DNA from: Candidatus Omnitrophota bacterium
GTDB taxonomy: Bacteria; Omnitrophota; Gorgyraeia; Gygaellales; Profunditerraquicolaceae
Length of the DNA stretch: 64,000 bases
NCBI GenBank assembly: GCA_003598025.1
Contig: QZKH01000003.1
Coordinates: 106,048-170,047 of the forward strand
Direction of reading: 5' to 3'
Both the position numbers and the translations under genes were made by a program. Under the pieces are notes generated by a model, which did not search any database, was not told the origin of the DNA, and saw only the letters and a program-made list of their open reading frames with translations. This document shows, one piece after another, positions 1 through 44,711 of this stretch; the first letter of the stretch is position 1; each line of letters starts with the position of its first letter.

Positions 1-382
1 ATCGGAGGCCGATTACATAAAAGTCGTTACAGTCAGCGAATATCTTAAAATGTTTGAACCAAGTAACAATATAAAACGCCTATGCGCAGGTTCCTGGATA
101 TTTGGCAACTTTGATAAGTGGATGAATAACCGCCACAAGGTAAAAGCATGGGAGTACCTTGCTCTGGCAAGGGCAAAGCTGGAGGAAGCAAGGGGAAGTT
201 TAGATAAGGAAAAATTAGAGTTGGCTGCCAAACAAATTCACATAGCAGAAGGCTCTGACTGGTTCTGGTGGTATGGAGAGGATCCTACCGGAGACTTTGA
301 TAAAATGTTCCGCATGCATCTCTCAAATTTCTACCGCATCATAGGAAAAGACATCCCGGGGTATTTGGAGAGGGAAATATAA
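1..382 (+). CDS. C-terminal fragment of a glycoside hydrolase family 57-like alpha-glucan enzyme (5' end outside window)
   Basis: Open frame from position 2 with no stop, so the gene starts upstream. The 'SDWFWWYGEDP' segment resembles GH57 C-terminal regions. A CBM48-containing gene lies downstream. Confidence 0.35.
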   Translation, partial: SEADYIKVVTVSEYLKMFEPSNNIKRLCAGSWIFGNFDKWMNNRHKVKAWEYLALARAKLEEARGSLDKEKLELAAKQIHIAEGSDWFWWYGEDPTGDFDKMFRMHLSNFYRIIGKDIPGYLEREI

Positions 383-390
383 ATTAGTTC

Positions 391-470
391 ATTGTTCATA
401 GATCATAGTTCATAGATTTTGGCAGTTTCCATGAACCATGAACCTTCAACCATGAACTAATTGCATAACC
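391..470. repeat. imperfect long palindrome built from gttcatNg / cNatgaac octamer repeats (module A)
   Basis: tagttcattgttcatagatcatagttcatag ... catgaaccatgaaccttcaaccatgaacta; the two arms are near reverse complements. Confidence 0.7.
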
Positions 471-510
471 TCTTGACATTAAACGAGTTTTTTGCTATAA
501 AAGCATAAAC

Positions 511-1071
511 ATGGACAAGAAAGATATATACGAACATCTGGCTAAAATATATCTGGATGCCTCCTCGAAACGCAAGAAAAAGGACACCAGGTATATAAGG
601 TTTAAGGCGCTATTTTTTGTAAGTTTGTGCTTCGTTTTTATCCTGGGTACAACATTAATTGTGGGTGTCCTTAAGGAAAAACCGAATAAATCGGAACTGG
701 CGCTTCTGCTGTCCGTTGACGCCGCAAAAATAAATTTCAATTTCAATCCCGCCAAAAAAGAAACTTTTACAATTAATTTAAATAAGCTAAATTTGGGCAG
801 GTACAAGGCTGTCGCTTTTTCAGTTAAAAAAGCCACTTATGATAATAAGATATCCTTAAGAGTGGATCTCGGCAACAATTTTAATGAACGTTCGGAAGTA
901 TACCTGCGGGATATACCTCATAAATGGAAAGAGTATGTTCTAAATTTTTCTGAATTTAAAAGTATCAGTGATTGGTCGGAAATGAAGGACATCGCTTTTT
1001 CAGTTGAACAGTGGAACGCCGAAAAAGATTCAGGTGTTATATATATAGATAATATCAGGTTCTTACGCTAA
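511..1071 (+). CDS. hypothetical membrane-anchored protein with C-terminal beta-rich domain
   Basis: 186-aa ORF with an N-terminal hydrophobic helix (FFVSLCFVFILGTTLIVGVL). No clear family match. Confidence 0.45.
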   Translation: MDKKDIYEHLAKIYLDASSKRKKKDTRYIRFKALFFVSLCFVFILGTTLIVGVLKEKPNKSELALLLSVDAAKINFNFNPAKKETFTINLNKLNLGRYKAVAFSVKKATYDNKISLRVDLGNNFNERSEVYLRDIPHKWKEYVLNFSEFKSISDWSEMKDIAFSVEQWNAEKDSGVIYIDNIRFLR

Positions 1072-1092
1072 TAGCGCTTAAGAAAGGAGCAA

Positions 1093-2178
1093 TTGATGCG
1101 TATAATTTCCGTTACAAACCAGAAGGGCGGATGCGGCAAAACGACTTCATCAATTAATCTGGCAGCAAGCCTTGCGGCTAACAATAAGAAAGTATTGCTT
1201 ATAGATTTAGACCCTCAGGCTCATGCGACATTCGGCTTAAGCGTTAAGGCTGATCTTAATATTTATAACGTCCTTTCTAAGATGACGCATAGAAAAGCAA
1301 AGCTTGGCGATATAATCAATAAAATAGATGATAATTTTGACCTTGCGCCTTCAAGCATAGTTTTAAGCACGCTTGAGCAGGAGTTAGCCAGCGAAATCGG
1401 CAGGGAGTCGCGTCTTTTAGACACCTTAAATAATTTCCGCGCTGATTATGATTACGTGTTAATCGATTGCCCTCCCAACCTCGGGATTTTGACGATAAAT
1501 GCCATGCGTGCGGCAAATGAGGTGATCATACCGGTAGAGGCTTCAAGGTTTGCCTTAGAAGGCGTAAGCCAGCTTGTTGAAATAATAAACCTTATCAGAG
1601 ACAGGCTTGGGCACTCCATAGACTATCATGTATTGGTCACTAATTTTGACTCAAGGCTCAGGCATTCTTTTATGCTTCTTGATAAAATAAGGATAACTTT
1701 TAAAGACAAATTATTCAGCACCATGATACATGTTAATGTAAAGTTAAAGGAAGCCCAGAACAGCGGCGCGCATATTCTAAAATATGATAAATATTGCCGT
1801 GGAGCCAAAGATTATTACAGTCTTTCCCGCGAAGTTATCCTGCAGGAAAGGACTCCCGGGACGTTTACCCCCGTGCTTGAGAAGCGCATGAAAGAGATAC
1901 TTAAGAAAGAATTACCTAAGCTTACGGAGGTTGTATTTGCTTTTAGCGCACCTGAGGCTAAAAACGTCTATATCGCCGGAGACTTTAATGGCTGGGCAAC
2001 CGATGAGAAGGCGCGTATGCAGCTTAACGATGGCAAATGGACCAAGAGGGTAAGCCTTAAGCCAGGCTCTTACCATTACCGTTTTGTAGTTGACGGAAAA
2101 TGGGTAGAAGATTTTAATAATCCATTAAGAGAAGAGAATCCTTATGGTGAAATGGATTCTATAGTAAAGATCGCGTAA
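1093..2178 (+). CDS. ParA/Soj-like deviant Walker-A ATPase fused to C-terminal CBM48 (AMPK-beta type) glycogen-binding domain
   Basis: KGGCGKTT deviant Walker A, DLDPQAHAT, CPPNLGILTINAM. C-terminus 'VVFAFSAPEAKNVYIAGDFNGWA...YHYRFVVDGKWVEDFNNP' is typical CBM48/AMPK1_CBM. RBS aaggag lies upstream. Confidence 0.85.
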   Translation: MMRIISVTNQKGGCGKTTSSINLAASLAANNKKVLLIDLDPQAHATFGLSVKADLNIYNVLSKMTHRKAKLGDIINKIDDNFDLAPSSIVLSTLEQELASEIGRESRLLDTLNNFRADYDYVLIDCPPNLGILTINAMRAANEVIIPVEASRFALEGVSQLVEIINLIRDRLGHSIDYHVLVTNFDSRLRHSFMLLDKIRITFKDKLFSTMIHVNVKLKEAQNSGAHILKYDKYCRGAKDYYSLSREVILQERTPGTFTPVLEKRMKEILKKELPKLTEVVFAFSAPEAKNVYIAGDFNGWATDEKARMQLNDGKWTKRVSLKPGSYHYRFVVDGKWVEDFNNPLREENPYGEMDSIVKIA

Positions 2179-2179
2179 T

Positions 2180-2497
2180 ATGACAGAAGATAGAGAGATC
2201 AGAGAAGGCAAGATATACGCAATGGTTGGCTATTGGTTATTTCTTTGCATTTTGCCTCTTTTGCTTAAAAAAGATAATAAATTTGCCGTGCACCACGGTA
2301 AGCAGGGGCTGGTTTTATTTATTTTTATTGTTGCTGCATTTATTTTTTACGTAATACCAATTTTAGGCCCGCTACTTTATCGTTTGGCTTCAGTTGTATA
2401 TTTTATCTGTTTTCTCTGGGGCAGCATAGAGGCATTAAGAGGCAGATATTGCCGCATCCCTATAATAGCTGATATTGCTGATAAGATAATACTTTAA
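2180..2497 (+). CDS. small integral membrane protein (DUF4870-like)
   Basis: 105 aa with 2-3 TM helices and an HHGKQG motif. Confidence 0.5.
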   Translation: MTEDREIREGKIYAMVGYWLFLCILPLLLKKDNKFAVHHGKQGLVLFIFIVAAFIFYVIPILGPLLYRLASVVYFICFLWGSIEALRGRYCRIPIIADIADKIIL

Positions 2498-2504
2498 AGT
2501 AGCT

Positions 2505-2999
2505 ATGCAGACCTTAGAGGCATTAAAGACCAGGCGCAGTGTCAGGGTATTTAAGCCAAAACCGATTGATGCCGGCTCTATTGAAGCAATACTGGAGGCA
2601 GGAGGCAATGCCCCCACAGCCAGGAATGTGCAACCCTGGGAATTCATAGTTGTGACAAAGAAGGAAGTCCTGCATGATATAGCTTCTTTGGCTGAAAATG
2701 GCCGTTTTATCAAAGATTCTGCCTGTTGTATAGCGGTGTTCTGTGATAATACTAAATATTACCTGGAAGATGGTTGTTCTGCTACGGTCAACATTTTAAA
2801 TGCCGCCCATGAGTTAGGTATAGGCAGCTGCTGGGTCGCAGGGGATAAGAAACCGTATTGTGAGAGCATAAGGCAGATGCTTGGGTGCCCGGCGCACCTG
2901 AAACTGGTAAGCTTAATCGCTTTGGGCTATCCGCAAGAGGTTCCCGTTCCGCCTGGCAAGAGGCCCTTGAATGAAATTATTCATAAGGATAAATTCTAA
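2505..2999 (+). CDS. nitroreductase family protein
   Basis: N-terminal 'LKTRRSVRVFKPKPID...NAPTARNVQPWEFIVV' is a classic nitroreductase signature. Confidence 0.8.
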   Translation: MQTLEALKTRRSVRVFKPKPIDAGSIEAILEAGGNAPTARNVQPWEFIVVTKKEVLHDIASLAENGRFIKDSACCIAVFCDNTKYYLEDGCSATVNILNAAHELGIGSCWVAGDKKPYCESIRQMLGCPAHLKLVSLIALGYPQEVPVPPGKRPLNEIIHKDKF

Positions 3000-3017: not shown

Positions 3018-3425
3018 ATGGTATTAAAAAAGAAGAAAAAAAATACCCCAAGAAAGCTATCTAAGAAGAAGGTCGTTAAAAAGAAGCCGGTCAGGAAAAA
3101 GATAACAAAAAAGAAAGCATCAGCTAAAAAGCCGGTTAAGAGAACTGCCAAGGTAAAGAAACCTGTTACAAAGGTTGCTAAAGAAGAAATACTCGGAGTA
3201 GTAACGCACTATTTTCCTAAAGTAAGAGCGGCTGTAATCAAGCTTAAGGGCCTGCTTTCCGTAGGCGACAAAATTAGGATTAAAGGCCATACAACAGATT
3301 TTACTCAAGTAGTCAATTCTATTCAGATTGACCACGTTGTAGTTAACCAGGCTAAAAAAGGCGCAGAAATAGGCCTTTTGGTGAATTCTCGGGTCAGGCA
3401 GCATGACGCTGTAACTAAAGCTTAA
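3018..3425 (+). CDS. lysine-rich (histone H1-like) basic N-terminal tail fused to a small conserved beta-barrel-like domain
   Basis: The first 55 aa are about 50% Lys with KKP/KKPV repeats. The C-terminal 80 aa are non-repetitive. RBS aggaggtgg lies upstream. Confidence 0.55.
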   Translation: MVLKKKKKNTPRKLSKKKVVKKKPVRKKITKKKASAKKPVKRTAKVKKPVTKVAKEEILGVVTHYFPKVRAAVIKLKGLLSVGDKIRIKGHTTDFTQVVNSIQIDHVVVNQAKKGAEIGLLVNSRVRQHDAVTKA

Positions 3426-3442: not shown

Positions 3443-3634
3443 ATGAGGCTTTCAGAAATTGAGAAAAAAGCACGAGATCTGGGCATGAAGGAGACATGGA
3501 GGTTTTCAAAGAAAGAGTTAATTAAGAATATTCAGAAAAGAGAAGGTAATTTTGATTGCTTCGGCACTGCTAAGGGGTTTTGTGACCAGTTAGGGTGTGT
3601 ATGGAGAAGCGACTGCGTAAAGCAAGCCATATAA
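3443..3634 (+). CDS. small hypothetical protein with Cys-rich C-terminus
   Basis: 63-aa ORF with RBS aggagg 7 nt upstream. CFG..C..LGC...C pattern. Confidence 0.4.
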   Translation: MRLSEIEKKARDLGMKETWRFSKKELIKNIQKREGNFDCFGTAKGFCDQLGCVWRSDCVKQAI

Positions 3635-3650
3635 GAAAGGTTAAATTTGA

Positions 3651-3836
3651 ATGAAATACAATTGCCAGATCTGCAACAGGGAAATAGATGATTTTGTAAG
3701 CGTCACGCACATAAAAGCAGAGGAATATCTCTTAGAACTTATACGTAAAGACCACCCTGAATGGAAAGAGAAAGATAAGACTTGCCATAAGTGCGTTGAG
3801 TATTACCGCAGGCTCGTAAAGGATGCGGAAATCTAA
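3651..3836 (+). CDS. small zinc-ribbon protein
   Basis: CQIC...CHKC pair of CxxC motifs. 61 aa. Confidence 0.4.
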   Translation: MKYNCQICNREIDDFVSVTHIKAEEYLLELIRKDHPEWKEKDKTCHKCVEYYRRLVKDAEI

Positions 3837-3854
3837 TCAAAACTGGGGGTTTAT

Positions 3855-4139
3855 ATGCTTAGCCAATTAGTAAGTTTACCTTTATTCCTCATGGCCTTGG
3901 GCGTAGGTTATATAGTCCTATATTTTGCCAAGAGGGAAGAAGGCAGGTCTAGAATCTTAGGATACTTTGTATCTGTTTTTATCATAGTATTAAGTGCTAT
4001 GATAATAATCATTAATACGTTTCTGGGCATAAAAGCCAATTGTGCAATGAGCTCATATATGGCCAGGCATAAGTTAATGATGAAGACAGGGCCTATGCAT
4101 CAGCAGCAAATGCCCATTGTAGCGCCAGCCAAGAAATAA
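3855..4139 (+). CDS. small membrane protein
   Basis: Two predicted TM helices; RBS gggggt upstream. Confidence 0.4.
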   Translation: MLSQLVSLPLFLMALGVGYIVLYFAKREEGRSRILGYFVSVFIIVLSAMIIIINTFLGIKANCAMSSYMARHKLMMKTGPMHQQQMPIVAPAKK

Positions 4140-4184
4140 AACACGTAAGCTCATCCAAATAGCCTCAAAAAGCTGATATTTTTA

Positions 4185-4230
4185 GCAACACTGTTTATTT
4201 AAGTAAACAGTGTTGCAAACCTTTTATTAT
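4185..4230 (+). terminator. intrinsic terminator-like hairpin
   Basis: Perfect 13-bp stem gcaacactgttta/taaacagtgttgc, followed by a T-rich tract (cttttattat) after the operon ending at 4139. Confidence 0.5.
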
Positions 4231-4411
4231 CAATATAATACAGCTAGGGTTTATAATTTATCAATATTACTAAGCTATTATGTATATTAATAGATCAAAT
4301 CGTATGCATAAGTAAAGCAGGCTAGTTATGAACCTCATGTTTAACCCCTTATAACTCTTTTAACTTCAATAAGTTAAAAATTAATAAAAAATAACACAAT
4401 TATGACAAATT

Positions 4412-4427
4412 TGGCATGATTAATGCT
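4412..4427 (+). promoter_or_regulatory. candidate sigma-54 (-24/-12) promoter upstream of the polysaccharide export operon
   Basis: TGGCATGATTAATGCT against consensus TGGCACGnnnnTTGCW. The GG and GC are correctly spaced. It lies about 110 nt upstream of the first gene of the operon. Confidence 0.35.
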
Positions 4428-4540
4428 GTTATATTATTATCATGACAAAATTGAATATACATAGACATACTAGGACATACATAGACAATATAGGTAAGAT
4501 TTCCACAGGTTTAATTTAATTAAAGACAGGGAGGTTTAAG

Positions 4541-4753
4541 TTGGGAAACGGCAGAATGACAATAACGGATGTAGCTGACAGGATAGGAGTAACCCCTAAA
4601 ACCATCATGCGCTGGGAAAGAGCAGGCAAAGTAAGCCGCTCAAAGCGGGACTGGCGAGGCTGGAGAGTCTATGATAAAGACGGGCTTAGGGAACTTAAAA
4701 AATTCAAGGACACGCTTTATATCGAGGAGGATGGAAATGGTAAAACTGAATAA
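4541..4753 (+). CDS. small MerR/excisionase-type HTH DNA-binding protein
   Basis: 'MTITDVADRIGVTPKTIMRWERAGKV' is a MerR-like HTH. TTG start follows RBS gggagg. Confidence 0.6.
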   Translation: MGNGRMTITDVADRIGVTPKTIMRWERAGKVSRSKRDWRGWRVYDKDGLRELKKFKDTLYIEEDGNGKTE

Positions 4754-5531
4754 GTTTATTCTATTGGTTTTGTTAGTGACTTTTGTTTCAAATGTGCAGG
4801 TCATGGCGGAAGATGAGGTCAAGGTTATTGAAAGCCAGCCTGCTGTAAGCTCAGCCGTAACTAGCCAGGTTGCAAACGTTTCTAAACAGCCTGCCTTAGT
4901 AATGGCTGAACCTGTTAGGCCCGGAGTCAGCTTTGACCCGGTTAAATACACTCTTGGCCCGGATGATGTTATTGAGATTACGGTAATGCGCCATCCGGAG
5001 TTCAGCGGTATCTATCCGGTCAATCTTGAAGGAAAAATCCAGTATAAATTTGTCGGGGATTTGGATGTCAAAGGCATGACTAAAGACGAGCTCGCCGCAA
5101 AGATTAAAGACGCAATTACTGCATATGTTATAAGCCCGGAAGTAAGCGTAACAATCCTGGAATTTAAGAGCAAGGTAATATATGTAGTAGGCGAAGTGGG
5201 ACGGCCCGGAAAATATTTTATGAGGTCTGAGTCTATACCGGTAAGAGAAGCAGTAGTTGAAGCTGGCCTTCCTACATTAGCAGCTGCTATGCGCAGATGC
5301 AGGCTCATTACTCCTGATGCAAAAGGGAGGGTTAAAACAAAGTCTGTGGATTTATATTCCATACTTTACGGCGGCAACCTTAAATACAATTATGACATGC
5401 GCCCGGGTGATGTGTTATACGTTCCGGCAACTGTTATGGCTAAAATAGTCAGGGTAATAAACCCTGTAACAGCGCCTATATCTTCACTTAACTCCGGAGA
5501 TAGTGCTGCAACTTCTTTGGCCACAAGATGA
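4737..5531 (+). CDS. wza: polysaccharide export outer-membrane protein (Wza / Poly_export + SLBB), PEP-CTERM locus type
   Basis: Signal peptide, then 'PDDVIEITVMRHPEFSGIYPVNLEGKIQY...GMTKDELAAKIKDA' Poly_export domain and an SLBB repeat. The ATG at 4737 follows RBS gaggagg; the track ORF begins at 4671. Confidence 0.85.
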   Translation: MVKLNKFILLVLLVTFVSNVQVMAEDEVKVIESQPAVSSAVTSQVANVSKQPALVMAEPVRPGVSFDPVKYTLGPDDVIEITVMRHPEFSGIYPVNLEGKIQYKFVGDLDVKGMTKDELAAKIKDAITAYVISPEVSVTILEFKSKVIYVVGEVGRPGKYFMRSESIPVREAVVEAGLPTLAAAMRRCRLITPDAKGRVKTKSVDLYSILYGGNLKYNYDMRPGDVLYVPATVMAKIVRVINPVTAPISSLNSGDSAATSLATR

Positions 5532-5549
5532 AGATAAGGAGAAATATAC

Positions 5550-6863
5550 ATGGATAATCAGGAAATAGCTAATTACCGTAACCCGGTTGAATACCTTAAG
5601 GTATTCTTTAGAAGAAGATGGTTGTTTGTAACCCCGGTATTTATCGGCCTTGTGCTGGGCATAGTCGCTTCTTTTATGATCCGGCCGACATATGAGTCTT
5701 CTACTGTAATACTTGTGGAAGAGGAGAAAATAATCAATCCTCTTATTCAGGGGCTGGCTGTATCAACCTCGGTTGCCCAGAGGATGCGCACCATAAAAGA
5801 GCAGATATTAAGCTGGAGCAGCCTGGTCTCTCTTACGAACAAGCTAAATTTAGCTAAGAACGTTGATTCCCAGGCAGGGTTTGAGGGCCTTATTATGAAT
5901 TTAAGAAAAAACATTGTCGTCACGATGCGCGGGCCTAACCTCATAAAAATATCTTATTATAATTCTAACCCTCAGAAAACCTTGGCAATCGCCAAAACCC
6001 TCACGGATGTTTTTATTGAAGAAAACATGCGTTCACAGAGCAAGGAAACGGATGTCGCTATTGATTTTATAAAAGACCAGCTTGAGGTTTATAAAAGGAA
6101 GATAAAAGAATCTGAAATAGGAAAATTAGAAGATGATTTGCGAAGCCTGCTGGTTGATTCTACTGAAGCGCATCCTATGGTAAAAGAATTAAGGCAAAGG
6201 ATCGCAATAGCAAAAAAAGAGCTTGAGGCAGGAGATTATAAAGTCTCTGATAAGGACCTGCCTATAGCAACCCCGGCTTACGAAGCGCTTAAACAGGAAC
6301 TTGATAAGATGACCGGTTCTGATATAGCTACCGCAGTTGCGCCTTTAGCATATTCTCCCGTGCAACAGACAAACCAGGTTTCTCCGGATTCGGTTTACAA
6401 GCTGTTAGTTATGGATAAGCTTGATTCAGCTTTGGGCAGGGACATGCGTGTTAATGAAAATATATATAATATGTTATTGCAGAAATTAGAGACAGCAAAG
6501 ATTACTAAACGCCTTGAAGCCTCCAAAGAAGGCACTCGTTATACAATAGTTGACCCTCCCAGGCTTCCGCTTAAACCTTCAAAGCCTAACAAATTGCTTG
6601 TTATATTCATAGGTATATTTTTGGGTGGTTTTCTAGGCACCGGCCTTGTATTTGGGAAAGAATTCTTAGACCAGTCTTTCCTTGATATTGATGATGCAAA
6701 AAATAATTTGGAATTGCCGGTCTTGGGGGCGATATCCAGGCTTACTACACAGGAAGAAATTGAGAAGGAGAAGCTAAAGCAGAAGAAATTTGTCACCATT
6801 GGCCTATCGGCAAGCGGAATATTGATTTTGATAGTTATGCTTATATCATTCTTCAGGAAATAA
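5550..6863 (+). CDS. polysaccharide chain-length determinant (Wzz/GumC family, PEP-CTERM locus subfamily)
   Basis: N-terminal 'RRRWLFVTPVFIGLVLGIV' TM region followed by a Wzz domain, a coiled-coil periplasmic region and a C-terminal TM. Confidence 0.8.
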   Translation: MDNQEIANYRNPVEYLKVFFRRRWLFVTPVFIGLVLGIVASFMIRPTYESSTVILVEEEKIINPLIQGLAVSTSVAQRMRTIKEQILSWSSLVSLTNKLNLAKNVDSQAGFEGLIMNLRKNIVVTMRGPNLIKISYYNSNPQKTLAIAKTLTDVFIEENMRSQSKETDVAIDFIKDQLEVYKRKIKESEIGKLEDDLRSLLVDSTEAHPMVKELRQRIAIAKKELEAGDYKVSDKDLPIATPAYEALKQELDKMTGSDIATAVAPLAYSPVQQTNQVSPDSVYKLLVMDKLDSALGRDMRVNENIYNMLLQKLETAKITKRLEASKEGTRYTIVDPPRLPLKPSKPNKLLVIFIGIFLGGFLGTGLVFGKEFLDQSFLDIDDAKNNLELPVLGAISRLTTQEEIEKEKLKQKKFVTIGLSASGILILIVMLISFFRK

Positions 6864-6887: not shown

Positions 6888-7697
6888 ATGTACGAGAAGT
6901 TTTATGGATTTAACGAAAAGCCGTTTAACACTACACCTGATTCAAGGTATTTCTTCCCCAGCCCGAAACACACTGAGGCGCTTAACAGCCTTATCTACGC
7001 TATAAATGAGCGCAGGGGTTTTGTGGTCGTAACCGGAGAGATAGGCGTAGGAAAGACTACTGTCTGGCGCACTGTCTTAAGCAAGCTTGATGCTAATACT
7101 AAAGTAGCTACTATTACCAATACCCATCTTACCTGTAAAGAGCTTATTGCCCAGATACTTGATGAGCTTGAGGTTGATTATACTCCGGGCACGAAACAAA
7201 AGCTGCTTGCGCAGTTAAATCATTATCTTATACAGCAGCTGGAAAACGATATTAATGTTGTTTTGCTGATAGATGAAGCGCAGAATTTAAGCTTTACGGC
7301 TCTTGAGGAAGTAAGGATGCTTTCAAACTTAGAGACTGAAAGGGAAAAACTAATCCAGATAATACTTATAGGACAGCCTCAGTTAAAAGAAAAATTGAAT
7401 AATCCAAAATTAGAGCAATTTAAGCAGAGGATCGCCGTTTATTACCATATGTCAGGATTAAGCAAGCAGGAAACTGAAGATTATATCCTGCACAGGCTTA
7501 AAATAGCAAGCTCAAACGGCGCAGGTTTCTTTAGCCCTGAGGCATTAAATTCGATATATACCCATTCAAGAGGCATCCCGCGAATTATTAACCTTATGTG
7601 TGACAGCGCGCTGCTTTCAGGGTATGTTTATGACACAAAGCAGATTACGGATAAGATTGTTAGTGAAGTGGTTAAGGAGAGGGAACTAGTTATTTAA
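6888..7697 (+). CDS. ExeA/GspA-like AAA ATPase (PEP-CTERM locus putative secretion ATPase)
   Basis: 'FYGFNEKPFNTTPDSRYFFPSPKHTEAL...VVVTGEIGVGKTT' is an ExeA-type N-terminus with Walker A. Confidence 0.8.
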   Translation: MYEKFYGFNEKPFNTTPDSRYFFPSPKHTEALNSLIYAINERRGFVVVTGEIGVGKTTVWRTVLSKLDANTKVATITNTHLTCKELIAQILDELEVDYTPGTKQKLLAQLNHYLIQQLENDINVVLLIDEAQNLSFTALEEVRMLSNLETEREKLIQIILIGQPQLKEKLNNPKLEQFKQRIAVYYHMSGLSKQETEDYILHRLKIASSNGAGFFSPEALNSIYTHSRGIPRIINLMCDSALLSGYVYDTKQITDKIVSEVVKERELVI

Positions 7698-7863: not shown

Positions 7864-8652
7864 ATGGGCAAAATCACCGAAGCATTAAAAAAAGCAGCGC
7901 AGGAACGCCTTGCCAGGATTGAAAAATTAGATAACCGGGAAGAGGTAAAATTTGAATTTATCGCAAAGAAACAGGTAGATTCCAAGATTGACCCCCGTAT
8001 TGTTACTTTCCATGACCCAAAATCATCGGTTTCAGAGCAATATAAAATGCTAAGGACAAACTTAGCTGCTTTAGGGACTAAAAAGCCGGTAAAGGTCATG
8101 ACTATTACGAGTTCCACTCATAGTGAAGGTAAGACCATAACAGCTATTAACCTTGCCATATCAATGGCGCACGATTTAAACAATAAGAATATCCTTCTTG
8201 TCGATGCAGATATGCGCAGGGCGCGTATTACGAGATATTTGGGTGTCGCTTCTGAGAGCGGGTTATCCGATATACTAAATGATGGCGCTAATATTGACCA
8301 GGCCTTGCTTAATATAGGTATAAATAACCTTACAATTTTACCTTCCGGTAAAATCCCCCATAACCCTGCTGAGCTTTTAGGCTCAGGGAAATTCAAGAAT
8401 CTTGTTGCAGCGCTTAAGAATAAATATGACTATGTGATTTTCGATACCCCGCCAATAATCTCTGTTACAGACGCAGGCATACTTGGAGCCCAGACTGATG
8501 GCGTTATTATGGTTATTCAGGCAAACAGGACTCAAAAGGGCGTAGTCAAGCATGCCGAAACCCTCCTGAGGCAGGCAGAGGCAAAGCTCCTTGGTTACAT
8601 TCTTACTAATATCCAGTACCACATCCCGGCGTACATATATAGATACCTATGA
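7864..8652 (+). CDS. BY-kinase (CpsD/CapB-type cytoplasmic tyrosine autokinase, PEP-CTERM locus)
   Basis: Walker A 'SSTHSEGKTITAINLA', Walker B 'ILLVDADMRR', and a Tyr-rich C-terminal tail 'YHIPAYIYRYL'. Confidence 0.8.
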   Translation: MGKITEALKKAAQERLARIEKLDNREEVKFEFIAKKQVDSKIDPRIVTFHDPKSSVSEQYKMLRTNLAALGTKKPVKVMTITSSTHSEGKTITAINLAISMAHDLNNKNILLVDADMRRARITRYLGVASESGLSDILNDGANIDQALLNIGINNLTILPSGKIPHNPAELLGSGKFKNLVAALKNKYDYVIFDTPPIISVTDAGILGAQTDGVIMVIQANRTQKGVVKHAETLLRQAEAKLLGYILTNIQYHIPAYIYRYL

Positions 8653-10342: not shown

Positions 10343-10855
10343 ATGAGTAAAACAATAGATTTACTAAATCAAATATCAAAATCAAGATATACCCAAGGAT
10401 TATCTAAGGTTACCAATGAGCTAAAAATTGGTTCAGCCAGGAATAATATAGTTTCAAACAGGAAATCTCGTATTCCGCTTACTTGGATGTTAGGTATGGG
10501 AGTTGCTACAATCATCCTGCTTAATTTTATTTTCACCATGAAACTATTTTTTATCGTAAAGAATTATAGTTCAAATAGCGCTGAAGTCATTGTTAAACTT
10601 AATGAAATTGATAAAATCTCACAAAAGAATACTCAAAAACTTGAAAAATATTCTTCCGATGTTTCAAAAATCAGCTCAGTAATCGGAGTTGTAGATACCA
10701 AGATAAAAGATAGTAATTTGCGCATTGCCGAGCTTCAAAAACAGCTTGAATCCCAGAAATTCGCCATAGAGAACCTTACTAAAGCCAAGGATACATTGTT
10801 TAATAAGGTAAGTGAGCTTGAGGCAGGAACAACTAAGGCAAAAAACAGGAGATAA
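10343..10855 (+). CDS. membrane-anchored coiled-coil protein
   Basis: TM helix (WMLGMGVATIILLNFIFTM) followed by a predicted coiled coil. Confidence 0.45.
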   Translation: MSKTIDLLNQISKSRYTQGLSKVTNELKIGSARNNIVSNRKSRIPLTWMLGMGVATIILLNFIFTMKLFFIVKNYSSNSAEVIVKLNEIDKISQKNTQKLEKYSSDVSKISSVIGVVDTKIKDSNLRIAELQKQLESQKFAIENLTKAKDTLFNKVSELEAGTTKAKNRR

Positions 10856-10859
10856 TTTG

Positions 10860-11636
10860 ATGTTTGGTGATCTGATAAAATACCGTGATCTTTTATTTAT
10901 GCTAACCCTAAGAGACATTAAGATCAGGTATAAGCAGGCTGTTATGGGCTTCTTTTGGGCGATCTTTATGCCTATTATGGCTGTTTTAGCCGGCGTTTTG
11001 GTAAAAAAAGCCATAGCTGTGGTTTCAGGAAAGCCTATGGATTTTGCAGGGGTCATATCTATATCTGTTAAGGTCCTGCCATGGACATTCTTTATTAGCT
11101 CAATAAGATTTGCGGTCCAGAGCCTTGTCGGTAACGCCAACCTGGTTACAAAGGTCTATTTTCCCAAAGAAGTCTTACCCTTATCATCTACGATAGCCTG
11201 CCTGTTTGATTTCTTAATTGCCGGGCTTGCATTAAGCGTCATGCTTGTTTTTGTTAAAGTCGGGGTAAGCATTCATCTTTTCTGGCTTCCAGTGATTATA
11301 TTATTTCTCGTTTTATTTACTGCCGGGCTCAGTTTACTGCTGTCTTCGGCAAATCTTTTCTTTAGGGATGTTAAATACGTAGTAGAGGTTATACTCATGT
11401 TTGGTATATTCTTTACCCCGGTTTTTTACGAAGCAAGCATATTCGGCAAATGGAAGGCGCTATTACTATTAAATCCTGTGGGCAGCCTGCTTGAATCGAT
11501 TAATAAAGTAGTAGTCCTTCATCAAACGCCGGACGCACCATGGCTAATTTATGCTGGCGCTACCTCTTTGTTGACTTTCTTTATTGGTATGATGATATTC
11601 CAGAAAAACGAACCCTATTTTGCGGAAAACATATAA
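10860..11636 (+). CDS. wzm: ABC-2 type polysaccharide exporter permease (Wzm/TagG/KpsM-like)
   Basis: 'MFGDLIKYRDLLFMLTLRDIKIRYKQAVMGFFWAI' is a canonical ABC-2 N-terminus, followed by six TM helices. The ATG at 10860 follows RBS aggaga. Confidence 0.8.
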   Translation: MFGDLIKYRDLLFMLTLRDIKIRYKQAVMGFFWAIFMPIMAVLAGVLVKKAIAVVSGKPMDFAGVISISVKVLPWTFFISSIRFAVQSLVGNANLVTKVYFPKEVLPLSSTIACLFDFLIAGLALSVMLVFVKVGVSIHLFWLPVIILFLVLFTAGLSLLLSSANLFFRDVKYVVEVILMFGIFFTPVFYEASIFGKWKALLLLNPVGSLLESINKVVVLHQTPDAPWLIYAGATSLLTFFIGMMIFQKNEPYFAENI

Positions 11637-12853
11637 TGAAAAATGCAATAGAATTTAACAATATTTGGAAAAAATTTAAACGCGGTGAAAAATTTAACTC
11701 TTTGAGAGATGCTATTCCTAATTTCTTCAGGAAAAAGATAGAGCTTGAAGCAGGAGAGTTTTGGGCGCTTAAAGATGTAAGTTTTGAGATTGAGAAAGGA
11801 GAAGTGTTGGGGATAATCGGTCCTAATGGAGCGGGAAAAAGCACTATTTTGAAGCTGCTTTCAGGCATAATAATACCTAATAAAGGCACTATGTCCATAA
11901 ACGGGAGGTTAGCTGCTTTAATTGAGGTAGGTGCAGGTTTCCACAATGACTTAACCGGAAGAGAAAATATTTATTTAAATGGCACTATACTTGGCATGAC
12001 AAGAAAAGAGATTGATTCAAAATTTGACCGTATAGTTGAATTTTCAGGGTTAAGCGAGTTTATTGACACTCCGGTTAAAAGATATTCTTCAGGAATGTAT
12101 TCCAGGCTGGGGTTTTCTGTTGCAGCACATATGGACCCGGATATCCTGCTTGTTGATGAGGTGCTTTCAGTAGGAGATATGGCTTTTCAGGCAAGATGTG
12201 CTGAGAAGATGAGAGAGCTGTTGGGTTCAGGGGCAACCATTATTCTAATATCTCACAATTTGCCTTTAGTGCAGAATATGTGCAAAAAGGTAATTTTGCT
12301 GCATAAAGGCCAGATATTAAACGAAGGCCATACCAATGATGTAATCCCGCTTTATGAAAAGATAGTTTATAGCCAGAGAGAAGAAGAAGTAAAGAAAGAG
12401 GCATCTAAGCTTGATTATAAAGTAAAAGTCCGCGAGGATTCTCTTGTATCAATAGATGAAGTCGCTATCTATGACGGTGCGTCTAATAAGAAGGACATCT
12501 TTTCAATAAATGAACATATTAATTTACAGGTATTACTTGGAACCAAAAAGAAAATAGAAAGACCTGTAGTTTCTGTAGAGATTGTCCGCGCTGATGGAGT
12601 TATTTGCTGCGCAACTAACACCAAGCAGGACAAATTTGATTTAGGTAATATTGACGGTAAGAAAACAATAGAAATCGGCTTGGGAGATATAAATCTATTA
12701 CCCGGGGTATATGTTTTACGGTTAGCTGTATGGGATAAGGATATGCTGCATCCATTTTGTGTAAGAAAGCAGGATATCCTTAAGATAGAGGGCGCATCTC
12801 TGTCAGCTACTAAAGGGATATTTAACCTAAAGGTAAAATGGAAGTTGTATTAG
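11636..12853 (+). CDS. wzt: ABC transporter ATP-binding protein with C-terminal glycan-binding domain (Wzt/TagH-like)
   Basis: GPNGAGKST Walker A, LSGGM signature-like 'YSSGMYSRL', DEVLSVGD Walker B, and an extra 150-aa C-terminal domain. The ATG overlaps the wzm stop (taATG). Confidence 0.85.
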   Translation: MKNAIEFNNIWKKFKRGEKFNSLRDAIPNFFRKKIELEAGEFWALKDVSFEIEKGEVLGIIGPNGAGKSTILKLLSGIIIPNKGTMSINGRLAALIEVGAGFHNDLTGRENIYLNGTILGMTRKEIDSKFDRIVEFSGLSEFIDTPVKRYSSGMYSRLGFSVAAHMDPDILLVDEVLSVGDMAFQARCAEKMRELLGSGATIILISHNLPLVQNMCKKVILLHKGQILNEGHTNDVIPLYEKIVYSQREEEVKKEASKLDYKVKVREDSLVSIDEVAIYDGASNKKDIFSINEHINLQVLLGTKKKIERPVVSVEIVRADGVICCATNTKQDKFDLGNIDGKKTIEIGLGDINLLPGVYVLRLAVWDKDMLHPFCVRKQDILKIEGASLSATKGIFNLKVKWKLY

Positions 12854-12908
12854 TAAATGGTTATGGTTACGCTAATACTTCTTTAACATTGACTTTTAAC
12901 GGTGTTTT

Positions 12909-14753
12909 ATGAGTAGAATTTGTGGCGTAATATCATCAAATCTTATGGAGGAAACCAGTAGGTCTATTGTAAGCAGTATGAATAAGCTTATGCAACATGA
13001 AAGTTGGCATAGAATTGATGAATGGGTTAATCATTCAGTCGGATTGGGGCATATTAGTATAGAAGCAGTTAATGAGGAAATACAACCAATCTTTAATGAG
13101 GATCGGACTAAGGCAATAATATTTGCAGGGAAGATATTTGCCTACGAGGAAGATAAGAAATATTTGATTGATAGGGGACATAAATTTATTTATTTTGATA
13201 ATGACGCTGAATTTATTTTACACCTATATGAAGAATATGGAGTATCGAAATTTAGGATGTTAAATGGGATTTTTAGTTTTTTTATTTGGGATAATTTACG
13301 AAAAAAAGCAATTTTAGTTAATGATAGATACGGAATGAGGCCTATTTATTATATGAATGACAGAAATAAAAAGATTCTACTGTTTAGTTCTGAGCTAAAG
13401 GCTATATCAAAACAGCGTACCTTTGAGAAGAAGATCGATTGGGAAGCGTGGAATATATTTTTTAGGCTAGGTTTCTTAACAGGCGAAGACACATTTTATA
13501 AAAATATTAAAGTCCTTCCTAGTGGGTCGGTGCTTTATTTTTATGAGGATAATCTTAGCATCGAAAATTATTGGTCTTATAATGATATTTCTGTAGCTGC
13601 TAATCAGAATTTATCAACCTACATAGATGACGTAACCTTTTTGTTCAAACAATCAATGAAACGCAGATTACTACCGGAAAAGAAAATTGCTTTATTTCTT
13701 AGTGGAGGGCTTGATTCGCGTGGTATAGCCATAGAGTTAAAAAATAATAAAATACCATTTGAGACTTTTACTACAAGCAAATTTACTAGTCTCGATAGAG
13801 ATAAAAATCTCGCTAGTCTTATTGCTCAAAAGATGAATGTAAAGAATCATTTCCAGGAGTTACCGGATAGCTTTTTGGATGATATAGAATGGCGTAAAAA
13901 CTATTTACTTGATTACGAAAGTGATGAGCATGGTTGGATTTTGCCATTATTGAATCAGGTTCCTTTAGATTTCAAGATTAATTACGATGGGATAGCTCAA
14001 GATACTATTTGTGATTCTCTCTTATTTCGTGATGAAAATTATATATATCTGGACATGCTAGAGTCCAAAAAATACGAAGATTTTATATATTTCTGGGTAT
14101 ATCAAAAACAATTTAAATTTGTAAAATGGTCTAAAAATGACAATAATAATTTTAATTTTTTTTGCCCTAATATTAGAAAATTTTTCTCAGATGAAATATT
14201 CTTCGACAATCTTGAAAAGCATTTAATTAAGTATGAAGGTAGTCCAAATCAATTTATTTTTTTTCAATTGGATAATAGAACAAGAAGGGAAATTTCGTTA
14301 GCCCCATTCCAGTTAATAGTTAATAAATTAGAGAGTTTTTGCCCATATTTAGATAATGACTATTTTGAATATATTATTTCATTGCCACGTTTTACCAAGC
14401 GAAATCAAACATTAAGAAGCAAACTTATAAATGAATTAAATCCTAATTTTTGCGGGTATAATGAAAGCAATTATATTAGTAAATATAGCGATGTTTATAA
14501 AAAGAAATTAAAGTTTCTTGTTTCTATTGAAAAAACACTTCTCAAAAATAGTTTTTTTGATTTGAATAATTCTAATTTTCTTCTAAGAAAATTTTTATCG
14601 GATTACTTACTGATGAAGATGGGTTTGTTGATGGAAAGTATTGAAAAAGATTTGTATTTAAAAAGTAGCTTTAATTTAATTTTTCCACTTTATTTCTTTA
14701 ACAAATGGTTAGCTAATGAAGGGTTTGGTAAGGATGATATATTGATAAGCTAA
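12909..14753 (+). CDS. asparagine synthase (glutamine-hydrolysing)-like amidotransferase
   Basis: AsnB-like layout with an N-terminal Cys region 'SRICGVIS', a central 'LSGGLDSR' PP-loop and 614 aa. It lies in a very AT-rich cassette. Confidence 0.7.
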   Translation: MSRICGVISSNLMEETSRSIVSSMNKLMQHESWHRIDEWVNHSVGLGHISIEAVNEEIQPIFNEDRTKAIIFAGKIFAYEEDKKYLIDRGHKFIYFDNDAEFILHLYEEYGVSKFRMLNGIFSFFIWDNLRKKAILVNDRYGMRPIYYMNDRNKKILLFSSELKAISKQRTFEKKIDWEAWNIFFRLGFLTGEDTFYKNIKVLPSGSVLYFYEDNLSIENYWSYNDISVAANQNLSTYIDDVTFLFKQSMKRRLLPEKKIALFLSGGLDSRGIAIELKNNKIPFETFTTSKFTSLDRDKNLASLIAQKMNVKNHFQELPDSFLDDIEWRKNYLLDYESDEHGWILPLLNQVPLDFKINYDGIAQDTICDSLLFRDENYIYLDMLESKKYEDFIYFWVYQKQFKFVKWSKNDNNNFNFFCPNIRKFFSDEIFFDNLEKHLIKYEGSPNQFIFFQLDNRTRREISLAPFQLIVNKLESFCPYLDNDYFEYIISLPRFTKRNQTLRSKLINELNPNFCGYNESNYISKYSDVYKKKLKFLVSIEKTLLKNSFFDLNNSNFLLRKFLSDYLLMKMGLLMESIEKDLYLKSSFNLIFPLYFFNKWLANEGFGKDDILIS

Positions 14754-14798
14754 ACGCTAAATTAAAGTTGCTTATATTTATTACTTTACCTCTACTTT

Positions 14799-15698
14799 AT
14801 GAATTATTCATTTATTTCAATAGTTATTGCTGCTTTTAATGAAGAAGATAATATCCCTAGTCTGATTGATTCACTATTGGCTTTAGATTATCCTAAGAAG
14901 AATTTTGAGATAATTATTGTTGATAATAATTCAAAAGATAATACTTATAATATTTTATCTAAGTATCCTACTATAAAAACATTAAAACAAATAAAAAAGG
15001 GAAAACCAGCAGCTATTAATTTAGGGATATTATCATCAAATGGAGAAATTATAGCTAATACAGATGCAGACTGTATAGTTGATAAACACTGGTTGCTAAA
15101 TATTAACAAATCATTTGAGGATAAAGCTATAGGGATTGTCGCTGGTCCTATAAAGAAAGCATGTCCGAGAAACATGTTGGAGAAATCATATTCCTTACGT
15201 GACGAAGACTTTAAGGTGACTATGAATCTAATTAAATTTCAAGGAGGGGCTAATTTGAGTTTCCGAAGAGATGTTTTGAATATGGTGGGTTTCTTTGATG
15301 AAACATTACTAAGAGGGCAAGACCTAGAGATATGTGAGAGAGTGCAGCTAAAGACGTCTTATAAATTTAAATATTTTGATGATGTTATTGTTTACACTAG
15401 ATATCCACATACCATTAAAAGATTGCTTCAGACATCGATAGGAGATGCCTTTGGGAAAGAGTTACTAGATAAAATGAATAATAAAAGTCATAATATTGCA
15501 TTACACGTTATTAAATTATTCGAAGAGATTATATATTCAATTATTCAAATATTCGCTAAGTTTTTTAGTAAAAATAAAGAAAACAAAATCGAGAGCTATT
15601 ATAAAGATCTATATGAAATTATTCGATCCTTTGGGAGATTTTTTGGCCATTTGAGAGGTCACTATTATTTTTTAAAAAATATTTTTTTTAAAAATTAA
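14799..15698 (+). CDS. family 2 glycosyltransferase
   Basis: 'ISIVIAAFNEEDNIPSLIDSLLALDYP...EIIIVDNNSKDNT' GT2 signature and a DxD-type 'TDADC'. Confidence 0.75.
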   Translation: MNYSFISIVIAAFNEEDNIPSLIDSLLALDYPKKNFEIIIVDNNSKDNTYNILSKYPTIKTLKQIKKGKPAAINLGILSSNGEIIANTDADCIVDKHWLLNINKSFEDKAIGIVAGPIKKACPRNMLEKSYSLRDEDFKVTMNLIKFQGGANLSFRRDVLNMVGFFDETLLRGQDLEICERVQLKTSYKFKYFDDVIVYTRYPHTIKRLLQTSIGDAFGKELLDKMNNKSHNIALHVIKLFEEIIYSIIQIFAKFFSKNKENKIESYYKDLYEIIRSFGRFFGHLRGHYYFLKNIFFKN

Positions 15699-29243: not shown

Positions 29244-29624
29244 GTGCGCACACTGGCAGGGAATTTCCAGTTATTTTATTACCTCAAAGAGTTATTTAAT
29301 CCATTCAGGGGCAAAATATCCTGGCAGTTTTTTTCACATAAATTTTTAAGGCTGATTATTCCGCTATTCCTGGCACTGCTATTATTATCCAGCGCCTTTT
29401 TATTTAACGAGCCGTTTTATAGATTATTTTTATTTTCTCAGGAGGCGTTTTATATCTTTGCTATACTCGGTAAATATTCAAAGCGCCGCAATAAAATTTT
29501 CGATGTTCCGTATATGTTCTGTATTATGAATTATGCTGCGGTAATCGGTTTTTACCGTTTCTTAAACAATAAACAGGGGGTCCTATGGGAAAAGGCAGCA
29601 ACTTTGGATTTACGCAAAGCTTAA
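29244..29624 (+). CDS. C-terminal membrane segment of the GT2 (probable continuation of 28456-29229 in another frame)
   Basis: GTG-initiated 126-aa ORF. The upstream in-frame translation reads ...EFSRRVRTLAGNFQ, resembling the GT2 QxxRW/...GNxQ region, followed by TM helices. Confidence 0.4.
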   Translation: MRTLAGNFQLFYYLKELFNPFRGKISWQFFSHKFLRLIIPLFLALLLLSSAFLFNEPFYRLFLFSQEAFYIFAILGKYSKRRNKIFDVPYMFCIMNYAAVIGFYRFLNNKQGVLWEKAATLDLRKA

Positions 29625-33584: not shown

Positions 33585-33597
33585 GAAAGGAGAGGAT

Positions 33598-34206: not shown

Positions 34207-34228
34207 ATTTAAATATATTAAGAAGGAG

Positions 34229-44122: not shown

Positions 44123-44215
44123 GGATTAGTTCATTGTTGATAGTTCATTGTTCATAGTGCATTGTTAATGGGTATGGAGTTTTCTATGAACCAAGAACCA
44201 TGAACTATGAACAGG
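44123..44215. repeat. module-A imperfect palindrome (gttcat... / ...atgaac arms)
   Basis: tagttcattgttgatagttcattgttcatag ... ctatgaaccaagaaccatgaactatgaac. Confidence 0.7.
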
Positions 44216-44219
44216 CCTA

Positions 44220-44540: not shown

Positions 44541-44555
44541 ATTAGTATTGTGTAT

Positions 44556-44700: not shown

Positions 44701-44711
44701 AATATCTTTGT

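Follow-up and report, generated by a model that had tools for sequence, protein, structure and literature searches.

A ParA-type ATPase fused to a predicted glycogen-binding CBM48 module in Candidatus Omnitrophota and other bacterial phyla

The 64,000-nt stretch of DNA analysed here (the window) comes from a Candidatus Omnitrophota bacterium (GenBank assembly GCA_003598025.1, contig QZKH01000003.1, forward-strand positions 106,048 to 170,047). Close to its upstream end lies a gene for a 360-amino-acid (aa) protein in which a ParA/Soj-type ATPase is joined, by a linker of ~25 residues, to a C-terminal carbohydrate-binding module of family 48 (CBM48). The product is identical to database protein P0001, a “ParA family protein” from a Candidatus Omnitrophota metagenome-assembled genome (MAG) at NCBI. 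A preliminary description of the locus, made from the sequence alone, had proposed this ParA–CBM48 architecture, and the proposal holds: the four motifs it listed (KGGCGKTT, DLDPQ, YIAGDFNGW, and YHYRFVVDGKW) are all found in the protein, and both Pfam families score above cut-off. Specifically, AAA_31 matches residues 1–175 (E 1.4e-56, 192 bits), CbiA residues 4–225, AMPK1_CBM residues 279–358 (E 7.4e-14, 52.2 bits, cut-off 26.8), and CBM_48 residues 275–336 (27.0 bits, cut-off 22.4); scoring the C-terminal region as a CBM48 was a check that the preliminary description had itself suggested. The named ParA, RepA, MinD, and BcsQ equivalogs of NCBIfam match the protein only below threshold. The open reading frame (ORF) described earlier is real; the sole correction is that the start codon is likely the ATG at 1096 rather than position 1093, because a Shine-Dalgarno sequence, AAGGAG, ends 7 nt before this ATG. 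In an AlphaFold2 (AF2) model, confidence is moderate over the ATPase part (mean pLDDT 72) and high over the C-terminal beta-sandwich (~88–91).

The ATPase part most resembles chromosomal partition proteins. Its best PDB match is Myxococcus xanthus ParA (8RAY, 180 bits), followed by Thermus thermophilus Soj (1wcv) and Helicobacter pylori Soj (6iub), and it is 43% identical to Bacillus subtilis Soj. The window protein has the deviant Walker A motif (K10-GGCGK15-T), the DxD of Walker A′ (D37/D39), and the Walker B aspartate (D124), and K10, K15, D37/D39, and D124 are invariant in 29 close homologues. Across 131 fusion sequences (the window protein and 130 representatives, the set behind all residue counts below), the signature lysine, the P-loop lysine, D39, and the Walker B aspartate are essentially invariant. 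R187 aligns with R189 of B. subtilis Soj, which, with its neighbours, provides the basic residues for non-specific DNA binding. Arginine is kept at this position in 117 of the 131 fusions, and two further basic positions, K/R216 and K/R218, in ~105. In M. xanthus ParA, a hydrophobic pocket (L150, L152, L155, L187, and L192) binds the N-terminal peptide of ParB (PMC12462528). By sequence alignment only, these residues map to L129, I131, I134, L166, and L171 of the window protein, all five invariant or almost invariant among the aligned Omnitrophota sequences. The mapping conserves five of the six hydrophobic pocket residues; V116 corresponds to Q95, E117 to E96, and Y81 probably to Y57. With its deviant Walker A motif, basic DNA-binding residues, and partner-peptide pocket, the domain appears to belong to the ParA/Soj subfamily, and the earlier label of “canonical deviant-Walker-A ParA” is borne out by the AAA_31 match together with the retention of catalytic and DNA-binding residues.

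What does the C-terminal module bind? In a phmmer search against the PDB with the C-terminal 91 residues alone, the matches are the CBM48 of a GH13 pullulanase, the carbohydrate-binding modules (CBMs) of AMPK beta1 and beta2, and LSF1/SEX4 (E 4e-8 to 3e-3), and every significant match is an alpha-glucan binder. The residues of AMPK beta1 that contact cyclodextrin (W100, K126, W133, L146, and N150) have as their equivalents W300, R329, W336, Y350, and D354 in the phmmer residue alignment to 1z0n. Over the 131 fusions, the W100 position is W in all 131, the K126 position is K or R in 126, the W133 position is W in 126, the L146 position is F, Y, or L in 98, and the N150 position is N or D in 116. 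The sugar-binding residues of AMPK-beta are thus near-invariant family-wide, in agreement with the earlier assignment to the AMPK-beta type, and the module is predicted to bind glycogen or a related alpha-glucan. A very improbable alternative is that the sandwich serves protein–protein contacts only and that some unrelated cargo is positioned. E-set and CBM48-like folds do occur in proteins that are not known to bind glycans (for example, an NCBIfam T9SS plug family matches at 32 bits), and genes of glycogen metabolism are not consistently adjacent to the fusion. Against this alternative, it is the ligand-contacting residues, beyond the fold core, that are near-invariant over 131 divergent representatives, and the significant PDB matches of the domain are without exception alpha-glucan binders.

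Between the two domains, the AF2 model places a helix at residues ~259–272, LEKRMKEILKKELP, which looks amphipathic by eye and has low-confidence flanks. Its conservation, with an invariant M265, is confined to the Omnitrophota clade and does not extend to the whole family; it may serve in membrane binding or in docking. Linker length ranges family-wide from 7 to 361 aa (median 43). Such free variation is more in line with a tether than with an allosteric domain or sensor. Taken together, the conserved residues suggest an active ParA that would be capable of binding DNA and of being switched by a peptide, and whose alpha-glucan site appears intact.

The fusion is widespread. The best 120 homologues are all full-length fusions of 358–439 aa with 67–73% identity, and all the named ones among them are from Omnitrophota. 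An exhaustive search took up the survey that the preliminary description had called for: of the best 150 representatives of clusters at 50% identity, 130 consist of ParA and one C-terminal CBM48. When one genome per species was scanned, full-length matches with 39–46% identity turned up beyond Omnitrophota, and a homology search from a Myxococcota member uncovered an equally large clade in Myxococcota. Every carrier is the MAG of an uncultured organism, and not all of the taxon labels can be trusted; the titles name Omnitrophota, Myxococcota, “delta proteobacterium,” Desulfobacteraceae (Desulfobacterota), Rokubacteria, Gemmatimonadales (Gemmatimonadota), Eisenbacteria, Planctomycetota, and Auribacter. 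The possibility that a frameshift or assembly error joined two genes, raised earlier as a way in which the fusion could prove false, has no point in its favour; the same continuous ORF recurs in hundreds of independent assemblies (NCBI, JGI, ENA, and Logan) from several phyla, among them the 120 full-length homologues, which rules out an artefact in all but a vanishingly small chance. In a crude neighbour-joining (NJ) tree without support values, all fusions form one clade, and B. subtilis Soj, M. xanthus ParA, T. thermophilus Soj, and a canonical Soj-like representative fall outside it. The fusions have signatures of their own, KGGCGKT (115 of 124) and DPQAH (122 of 125).

A plasmid-partition variant was rejected. 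In 72,556 plasmid records, the C-terminal 118 aa had no ParA-linked match: of three CBM matches, none lies beside a ParA gene, one falls under an annotated alpha-amylase-family hydrolase, and two have no listed feature. Apart from five records with coverage of at least 80%, the full-length query gave ParA-only matches, at ~69% coverage. A separate group of very long proteins, including P0121 (1812 aa, 18 matched stretches), P0187, and P0236, carries many tandem CBM48-like repeats without a ParA domain; it is the CBM part of the query that these proteins match, with high scores.

Gene neighbourhoods were compared in 88 related loci, of which 47 are Omnitrophota-type. The most constant neighbour in the latter group is p186, which lies directly upstream of the fusion in 46 of the 47 loci, mostly with gaps of ~0–40 nt; in eight deeper-branching loci, a longer version with a transmembrane (TM) segment and a CBM-like domain occupies the same place. 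None of its 778 homologues has a Pfam domain, and the named ones are “hypothetical proteins” from Omnitrophota. The AF2 model of p186 (pLDDT 85.5) consists of an N-terminal helix, a TM helix at residues 26–54, and a beta-sandwich at residues 64–185. For the sandwich, Foldseek retrieves CBM11 (1v0a/6r31, E 4e-6), then CBM8, CBM30, and CBM28, and a family profile against the PDB also retrieves CBM11 (E 0.011). The N-terminal helix, KKDIYEHLAKIYLDASS, is conserved and K-rich. By the positive-inside rule, this helix is predicted to be cytoplasmic and the sandwich to lie outside the cytoplasmic membrane.

Downstream of the fusion, p135 is found in 42 of the 47 loci. The domain GTP_EFTU_D2 is detected in 13 of 26 members of its family (best E 2.9e-8), one member matches the histone H1-like HC2, and the family profile retrieves domain 2 of eEFSec/EF-Tu from the PDB (E 1.4e-3). 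Its Lys-rich tail and barrel make p135 a second candidate partner, or a candidate nucleoid binder. Between the fusion and p135, the window has two variable inserts. A homologue of the DUF4870-like membrane protein occurs within 4 kb in 25 Omnitrophota-type loci, at times beyond p135; the nitroreductase gene occurs in only eight loci and is probably unrelated to the module. Two small ORFs follow p135. The first, p63, has a weak Rho_N/SAP-like N-terminus (Rho_N E 0.0048) and C-terminal cysteines, and the second, p61, shows two CxxC pairs in its translation and a zinc-ribbon-like look. Both may be part of the same module as p135 and the fusion.

The window opens on the end of another gene, which the preliminary description had suspected of encoding a glycoside hydrolase of family 57 (GH57) that would add a glycogen context. 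The fragment alone has no Pfam match, and the catalytic residues fall outside the window; its identity as a GH57 is established through the syntenic locus L003, whose full-length GH57 is 58% identical to it at the C-terminus. The L003 protein matches Glyco_hydro_57 (E 4.6e-62), has GH57 amylopullulanase structures as its best PDB matches (8zyi/9iht, 310–312 bits), and lacks a signal peptide. There is also a weak NCBIfam match to a GH57 branching enzyme. An enzyme that cuts alpha-glucans in the cytoplasm agrees with a glycogen context. That context holds in only 32 of the 47 Omnitrophota-type loci, nearly all of them in the closer subclade (ParA identity of at least 55%), and GH57 is nearly absent from the loci in other phyla. 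Moreover, the GH57 gene and p186 are separated in the window by an imperfect hairpin (−22.5 kcal/mol, z = −4.3, with 0 of 200 shuffles folding as well, and no T-run after it), which may act as a terminator or an operator array or be a small repeat element, and by a sigma-70-like promoter match that ends 9 nt before the p186 ATG. This match is one of consensus only; a consensus scanner omits the site since its rule demands T at position 6 of the −10 element. If the promoter is real, the p186–ParA transcript would have almost no leader. The hairpin and the promoter-like site set GH57 apart from the p186–ParA unit, which weakens the GH57 context. A gene for an Alginate_exp (AlgE-like) porin is found farther upstream in 31 of the Omnitrophota-type loci, at a distance of 0.7–2.8 kb, or 4.4 kb in L001/L002. 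In L001/L002, which represent one related Omnitrophota genome, several toxin–antitoxin and AbiEii/nucleotidyltransferase modules (3803–5746 and 10391–14988) flank the conserved cluster; the window lacks these modules.

Much of the remainder of the window is taken up by a large PEP-CTERM/exosortase exopolysaccharide (EPS) locus. Genes for a Y-family polymerase and LexA, which follow the ParA cluster by a few kb in L003 and L005, are displaced beyond it, so the EPS locus looks like an insertion of ~36 kb. It includes a gene whose 1043-aa product has domains that resemble PcRGLX and GH127 and may be a lyase or hydrolase of polysaccharides.

These surroundings bear on an improbable reading in which the ATPase, in the manner of BcsQ, organises envelope polysaccharide: it would position or gate a complex for alpha-glucan synthesis, export, or uptake, and its CBM48 would grip the polymer at the cytoplasmic end. 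The bitopic p186 with its CBM11-like ectodomain, the porin upstream in 31 loci, and the EPS locus of the window are in keeping with such a role, and BcsQ is a precedent within the ParA/MinD family, with BcsRQ among the fold matches. Yet no glycosyltransferase or synthase is conserved beside the fusion, the NCBIfam BcsQ score is 72 against a cut-off of 158, the EPS locus is missing from the syntenic loci L003 and L005, and relatives outside Omnitrophota have neither a membrane partner nor a porin. Furthermore, CBM48 typically binds intracellular glycogen or starch. The coordinates of all these features are collected in Table 1.

Table 1. Features of the ParA–CBM48 locus, the downstream region of the window, and partner genes in related loci (window positions unless a locus is named)
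Feature	Position	Strand	Basis or remark
GH57 glycoside hydrolase, C-terminal 126 aa, cut by window edge	2..382	+	Homology to L003 GH57
Imperfect hairpin, GTTCAT(A/T)G repeats and ATGAAC complement, GH57 stop to p186	382..462	+	RNA fold
Sigma-70-like promoter match, TTGACA (473-478), 17-nt spacer, TATAAA (496-501)	473..501	+	Direct reading
p186, bitopic membrane protein, CBM11-like beta-sandwich	511..1071	+	AF2, Foldseek, synteny
Shine-Dalgarno AAGGAG of ParA-CBM48 gene	1084..1089	+	Direct reading of sequence
ORF, listing span	1093..2178	+	ORF listing of window
ParA-CBM48 gene, likely start ATG 1096, 360-aa product	1096..2178	+	
ParA/Soj-type ATPase domain, residues 1-250	1096..1845	+	Pfam AAA_31, Soj alignment
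Linker, residues 251-275	1846..1920	+	AF2 secondary structure and low pLDDT flanking helix
Linker helix, residues ~259-272	1870..1911		AF2
AMPK-beta-type CBM48, residues 276-358, plus last two residues and stop	1921..2178	+	Pfam, phmmer
DUF4870-like small membrane protein, variable insert between ATPase and p135	2180..2497	+	Pfam E 2.7e-5, just under cut-off
Nitroreductase-family protein, variable insert	2505..2999	+	Pfam Nitroreductase E 5.6e-24
p135, ~55-aa Lys-rich disordered N-terminal tail and EF-Tu-domain-2-like beta-barrel	3018..3425	+	Profiles, synteny
Small ORFs p63 and p61	3443..3836	+	Co-linear in 20 closer-subclade loci, 57-80% identity
EPS locus, PEP-CTERM/exosortase type	~4540-40700		
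EPS locus: MerR-like gene			
EPS locus: Wza	4671-5531		
EPS locus: Wzz/GNVR	5550-6863		
EPS locus: AAA_22 ATPase	6888-7697		
EPS locus: BY-kinase-like P-loop protein	7864-8652		
EPS locus: Wzm/Wzt ABC transporter; many GT2/GT4 glycosyltransferases			
EPS locus: Wzy	18984-20435		
EPS locus: 1043-aa protein	24523-27654		PcRGLX-like and GH127-like domains
EPS locus: exosortase EpsH	29585-30433		
EPS locus: DUF3485/EpsI	30430-31050		
EPS locus: sugar transferase			
EPS locus: four PEP-CTERM proteins	32251-34894		
EPS locus: sigma-54 two-component pair	37119-39726		
Y-family polymerase and LexA	42974-45323		
FlhG/FleN-like partners (and relatives)	L049:7128-8045, L087:11304-12251, L088:11165-11953		Always directly downstream of ParA-CBM48
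LGRGL peptide fused to NucS-like domain	L080:7180-7857, L082:7143-7796, L086:7052-7711		Rokubacteria/Rokuibacteriota and Gemmatimonadales MAGs

ParA proteins of the chromosomal type act with ParB, yet the fusion has no ParB neighbour: phmmer with Spo0J found no ParB, either in the window or across the 88 loci, and none appears in the Pfam-annotated neighbourhoods examined, in which parS was not searched for. What lies beside the fusion outside Omnitrophota is a gene whose product begins with a ParB-like peptide. In 10 loci, the gene directly downstream starts KLG(R/K)GLEDISxLFLS; in Myxococcota-type loci, it starts MPRDLxDVLHYFLPE, and the two forms align column by column. The candidate peptide for the Myxococcota orthologue is MPRDLADVLHYFLPE. 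The ParA-binding motif of chromosomal ParB is L-x-R-x-L-x-x-L-I, with a central basic residue (PMC12462528), and both forms fit it. In 2.05 million six-frame residues, the strict peptide patterns occur only beside the fusion, apart from one second copy in L049 (at 9866, 2.7 kb further downstream).

The bodies that carry this peptide differ. One is FlhG/FleN/MinD-like in fold and has a degenerate P-loop (FleN E 4.5e-26 for its profile against the PDB). Three loci have the peptide on a domain that weakly matches the nuclease NucS, and three others have it on short proteins without a Pfam family. The NucS-like domain is a separate third gene in Myxococcota, where the gene order is MerR, ParA–CBM48, FlhG-like partner, NucS-like protein, and ECF sigma factor. 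The joining of an LGRGL peptide to a NucS-like, probably DNA-binding, domain would be a ParB-like combination without homology to ParB. Other neighbours in these phyla include PhoH/PIN, PKD-repeat, Memo, bifunctional nuclease, and flavin reductase genes and several without a Pfam family; no glycogen genes were found beside the fusion there. A downstream partner that bears such a peptide implies that ParA–CBM48 works with a dedicated partner and is not self-contained. Hence the earlier idea of a “self-contained” system does not stand, given also the presence of p186 in 46, and of p135 in 42, of the 47 Omnitrophota-type loci.

Do p186 and p135 carry the same peptide? A motif hidden Markov model (HMM) built from 18 LG(R/K)GL-type peptides retrieves neither significantly (best E >1), and some of these matches fall on the GE(I/V)THYF strand of p135. 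The result speaks against homology between the N-terminal helix of p186 and the LG(R/K)GL peptide. What the helix has in common with these peptides is limited to a distal half-pattern, E-x-[LI]-[AS]-x-[IL]-[YF]-[LF]-[SD]; 45 of the 57 matches to this half-pattern adjoin a fusion, in a count made with a regular expression designed after both sets had been seen. The notion that the helix is the Omnitrophota version of the peptide is a lead, not a result.

The NucS-like genes and the kinship with Soj raise a distinctly unlikely possibility, namely that the fusion reports glycogen status to the chromosome. The availability of a Soj-like regulator of segregation or replication would be set by its sequestration on glycogen, much as the beta-CBM of AMPK ties an energy sensor to glycogen. 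The ParA domain is indeed closest to chromosomal ParA/Soj, and the nearest relatives of the CBM48 are of the AMPK-beta type. In addition, a NucS-like third gene is present in many non-Omnitrophota loci, three loci carry LGRGL on a NucS-like domain, and p135 has a histone-H1-like Lys-rich tail. Several observations speak against such a sensor. There is no ParB context in the 88 loci, the fusion ParA domains form their own clade in the crude NJ tree with their own signatures (KGGCGKT and DPQAH), and the freely varying linker length disfavours allosteric coupling. Furthermore, Myxococcota possess a separate, essential ParABS system (PMC12462528).

The reading that we prefer, and that we consider nearly as likely to hold as to fail, is an ATP-switched system that tethers or positions glycogen particles relative to the nucleoid. 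The monomer would be held on glycogen by its CBM48. ATP-driven dimerisation would then create a surface for non-specific DNA binding, so that glycogen is tethered to, and spread over, the nucleoid. The short N-terminal peptide of the adjacent partner would dock at the dimer interface and trigger ATP hydrolysis, releasing the tether and resetting the cycle; in the window, the candidates for this trigger are p186 and p135. The net outcome would be the regulated placement, anchoring, or inheritance of glycogen granules. We infer glycogen binding, DNA binding, the ATP cycle, the identity of the Omnitrophota activator, and the cellular outcome from the conserved residues and neighbouring genes described above. 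Glycogen synthesis is reportedly encoded in Omnitrophota MAGs (PMC8542988). As a general rule in ParA/MinD systems, a charged N-terminus of the partner acts on the ATPase and the remainder of the partner binds cargo (PMC10241942).

Several points weigh against the tethering proposal. First, by analogy with classical systems, in which the partner binds the cargo, a ParA that holds its cargo permanently could not run a textbook Brownian ratchet. Second, the glycogen context is patchy. GH57 is linked in only 32 of the 47 Omnitrophota-type loci and, outside this group, lies nearby only in L060; Myxococcota loci offer only a PGM/PMM gene ~5 kb away on the other strand; and no glgA, glgB, glgC, or glgP was found among ~50 scanned ORFs of the window. 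Third, the predicted ectodomain of p186 points to an envelope link, which would be superfluous for a simple granule model. Fourth, the motif HMM singles out no activator in the window system, where p186 and p135 are the candidates. Fifth, confidence in the AF2 model of the ParA part is moderate (mean pLDDT 72).

In a further reading, which we regard as unlikely, glycogen would be the matrix and not the cargo, an arrangement that would resemble MinD. ATP-dimers with two CBMs would coat granules by avidity and be stripped from them by the partners with ParB-like peptides, and lineage-specific partners (p186, the FlhG-like pseudo-ATPases, and the NucS-like protein) would be recruited or patterned relative to glycogen. 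Granules would be the third ParA/MinD matrix, after the nucleoid and the membrane. The constancy of ParA and CBM48 across phyla, with partners that differ, fits this arrangement, as does the position of the CBM48 at the C-terminus, where MinD has its membrane-targeting helix, with linker length left free. Likewise, known ParA/MinD ATPases bind the matrix and a variable partner sets the cargo (PMC10241942). Against a glycogen matrix, the Soj-type arginine and neighbouring basic residues are kept, an argument for continued use of the nucleoid; nor does this reading offer a cargo by name, and no precedent is known. If it is true, several phyla would have a spatial cue that depends on carbon storage and joins glycogen to the nucleoid and, among Omnitrophota, also to the membrane.

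How does the fusion compare with known systems? With chromosomal ParA/Soj proteins (8RAY, 1WCV, and B. subtilis Soj) it shares the catalytic residues, the R189-type arginine, the peptide pocket, and 40–45% identity; it differs from them in the missing ParB neighbour, the signatures KGGCGKT/DPQAH, and the C-terminal CBM48, which, to our knowledge, no described ParA carries. Like McdA/McdB, PomZ, ParC, PpfA, and FlhG systems, it appears to be an orphan ParA-type ATPase for a non-DNA structure, with a charged-N-terminus partner encoded nearby. In those systems the partner binds the cargo, whereas in the fusion the putative cargo-binding module is built into the ATPase, and the cargo would be a polysaccharide granule, for which no such system is known. 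McdA is one of the fold matches of the ParA part, but membership of that family was rejected, since the fusion has the signature lysine K10 that McdA lacks and McdA is only a distant match (54 bits); no bacterial microcompartment genes were seen in the neighbourhoods examined, in which McdB was not specifically searched for. The resemblance to MinD lies in a C-terminal appendage that sets the surface bound, two copies of which per ATP-dimer would give avidity. In MinD, however, the appendage is an amphipathic membrane helix, and in the fusion it is a folded glycan-binding domain; the sequence is nearer to Soj, the NCBIfam minD scores are 59–66 bits against cut-offs of 202–213, and neither MinC nor MinE was seen in the neighbourhoods examined, so the fusion is not a MinD. 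BcsQ is likewise a ParA/MinD-fold ATPase, retrieved as a fold match, that is tied to a polysaccharide process and membrane partners. The fusion has no synthase partner and BcsQ has no CBM; assignment to BcsQ was rejected on the TIGR03371 score (72.2 bits, cut-off 157.85) and the absence of bcsA, bcsB, and bcsR nearby.

Two further comparisons concern the proposed function. The CBM48 of AMPK beta (1Z0N) and of SEX4/LSF1 belongs to the same domain family, has the same ligand-contacting residues, and parks a nucleotide-controlled enzyme on glycogen or starch; the CBM48 of the fusion may play a like role, although the enzyme is a ParA-type ATPase instead of a kinase scaffold or phosphatase and the protein is bacterial. 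PhaM and PhaF tether PHB/PHA granules to the nucleoid through Lys-rich, histone-like tails, passively and with no ATPase switch. The proposed outcome, granules hitch-hiking on the nucleoid, would be the same, and the Lys-rich tail of p135 resembles theirs without homology.

ParA/MinD ATPases are the means by which bacteria generally place large objects, among them chromosomes, plasmids, carboxysomes, chemoreceptor arrays, flagella, and the division site, and we know of no active positioning system for glycogen, the commonest bacterial carbon store. The preliminary description knew of no earlier account of a ParA covalently linked to a glycogen-binding module, and a full-text literature search, with subscription-only papers outside its scope, likewise found no ParA-type ATPase linked to glycogen or to a carbohydrate-binding module. 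Targeted reading of the survey of multiple ParA/MinD systems and of a ParA-family review (PMC10241942 and PMC9178275) likewise met with neither glycogen nor carbohydrate. In databases, the architecture goes by generic names, “AAA family ATPase” and “chromosome partitioning protein” among them. The family, a ParA/MinD ATPase with what looks like a built-in glycan anchor and unusual partners, is apparently unstudied.

What would these proteins mean for the biology of the bacteria that carry them? First, they would be a widespread candidate for a ParA in which the specificity for cargo or surface is written into the ATPase itself, in the form of a well-understood glycan-binding module. Second, if they sense energy state on the chromosome, they would be a bacterial analogue of AMPK’s glycogen tether. 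Third, the family appears to display a ParB-type activating peptide on unrelated bodies (a FlhG-like pseudo-ATPase, a NucS-like domain, and perhaps also a protein of the membrane), which may be useful for understanding how partner specificity evolves.

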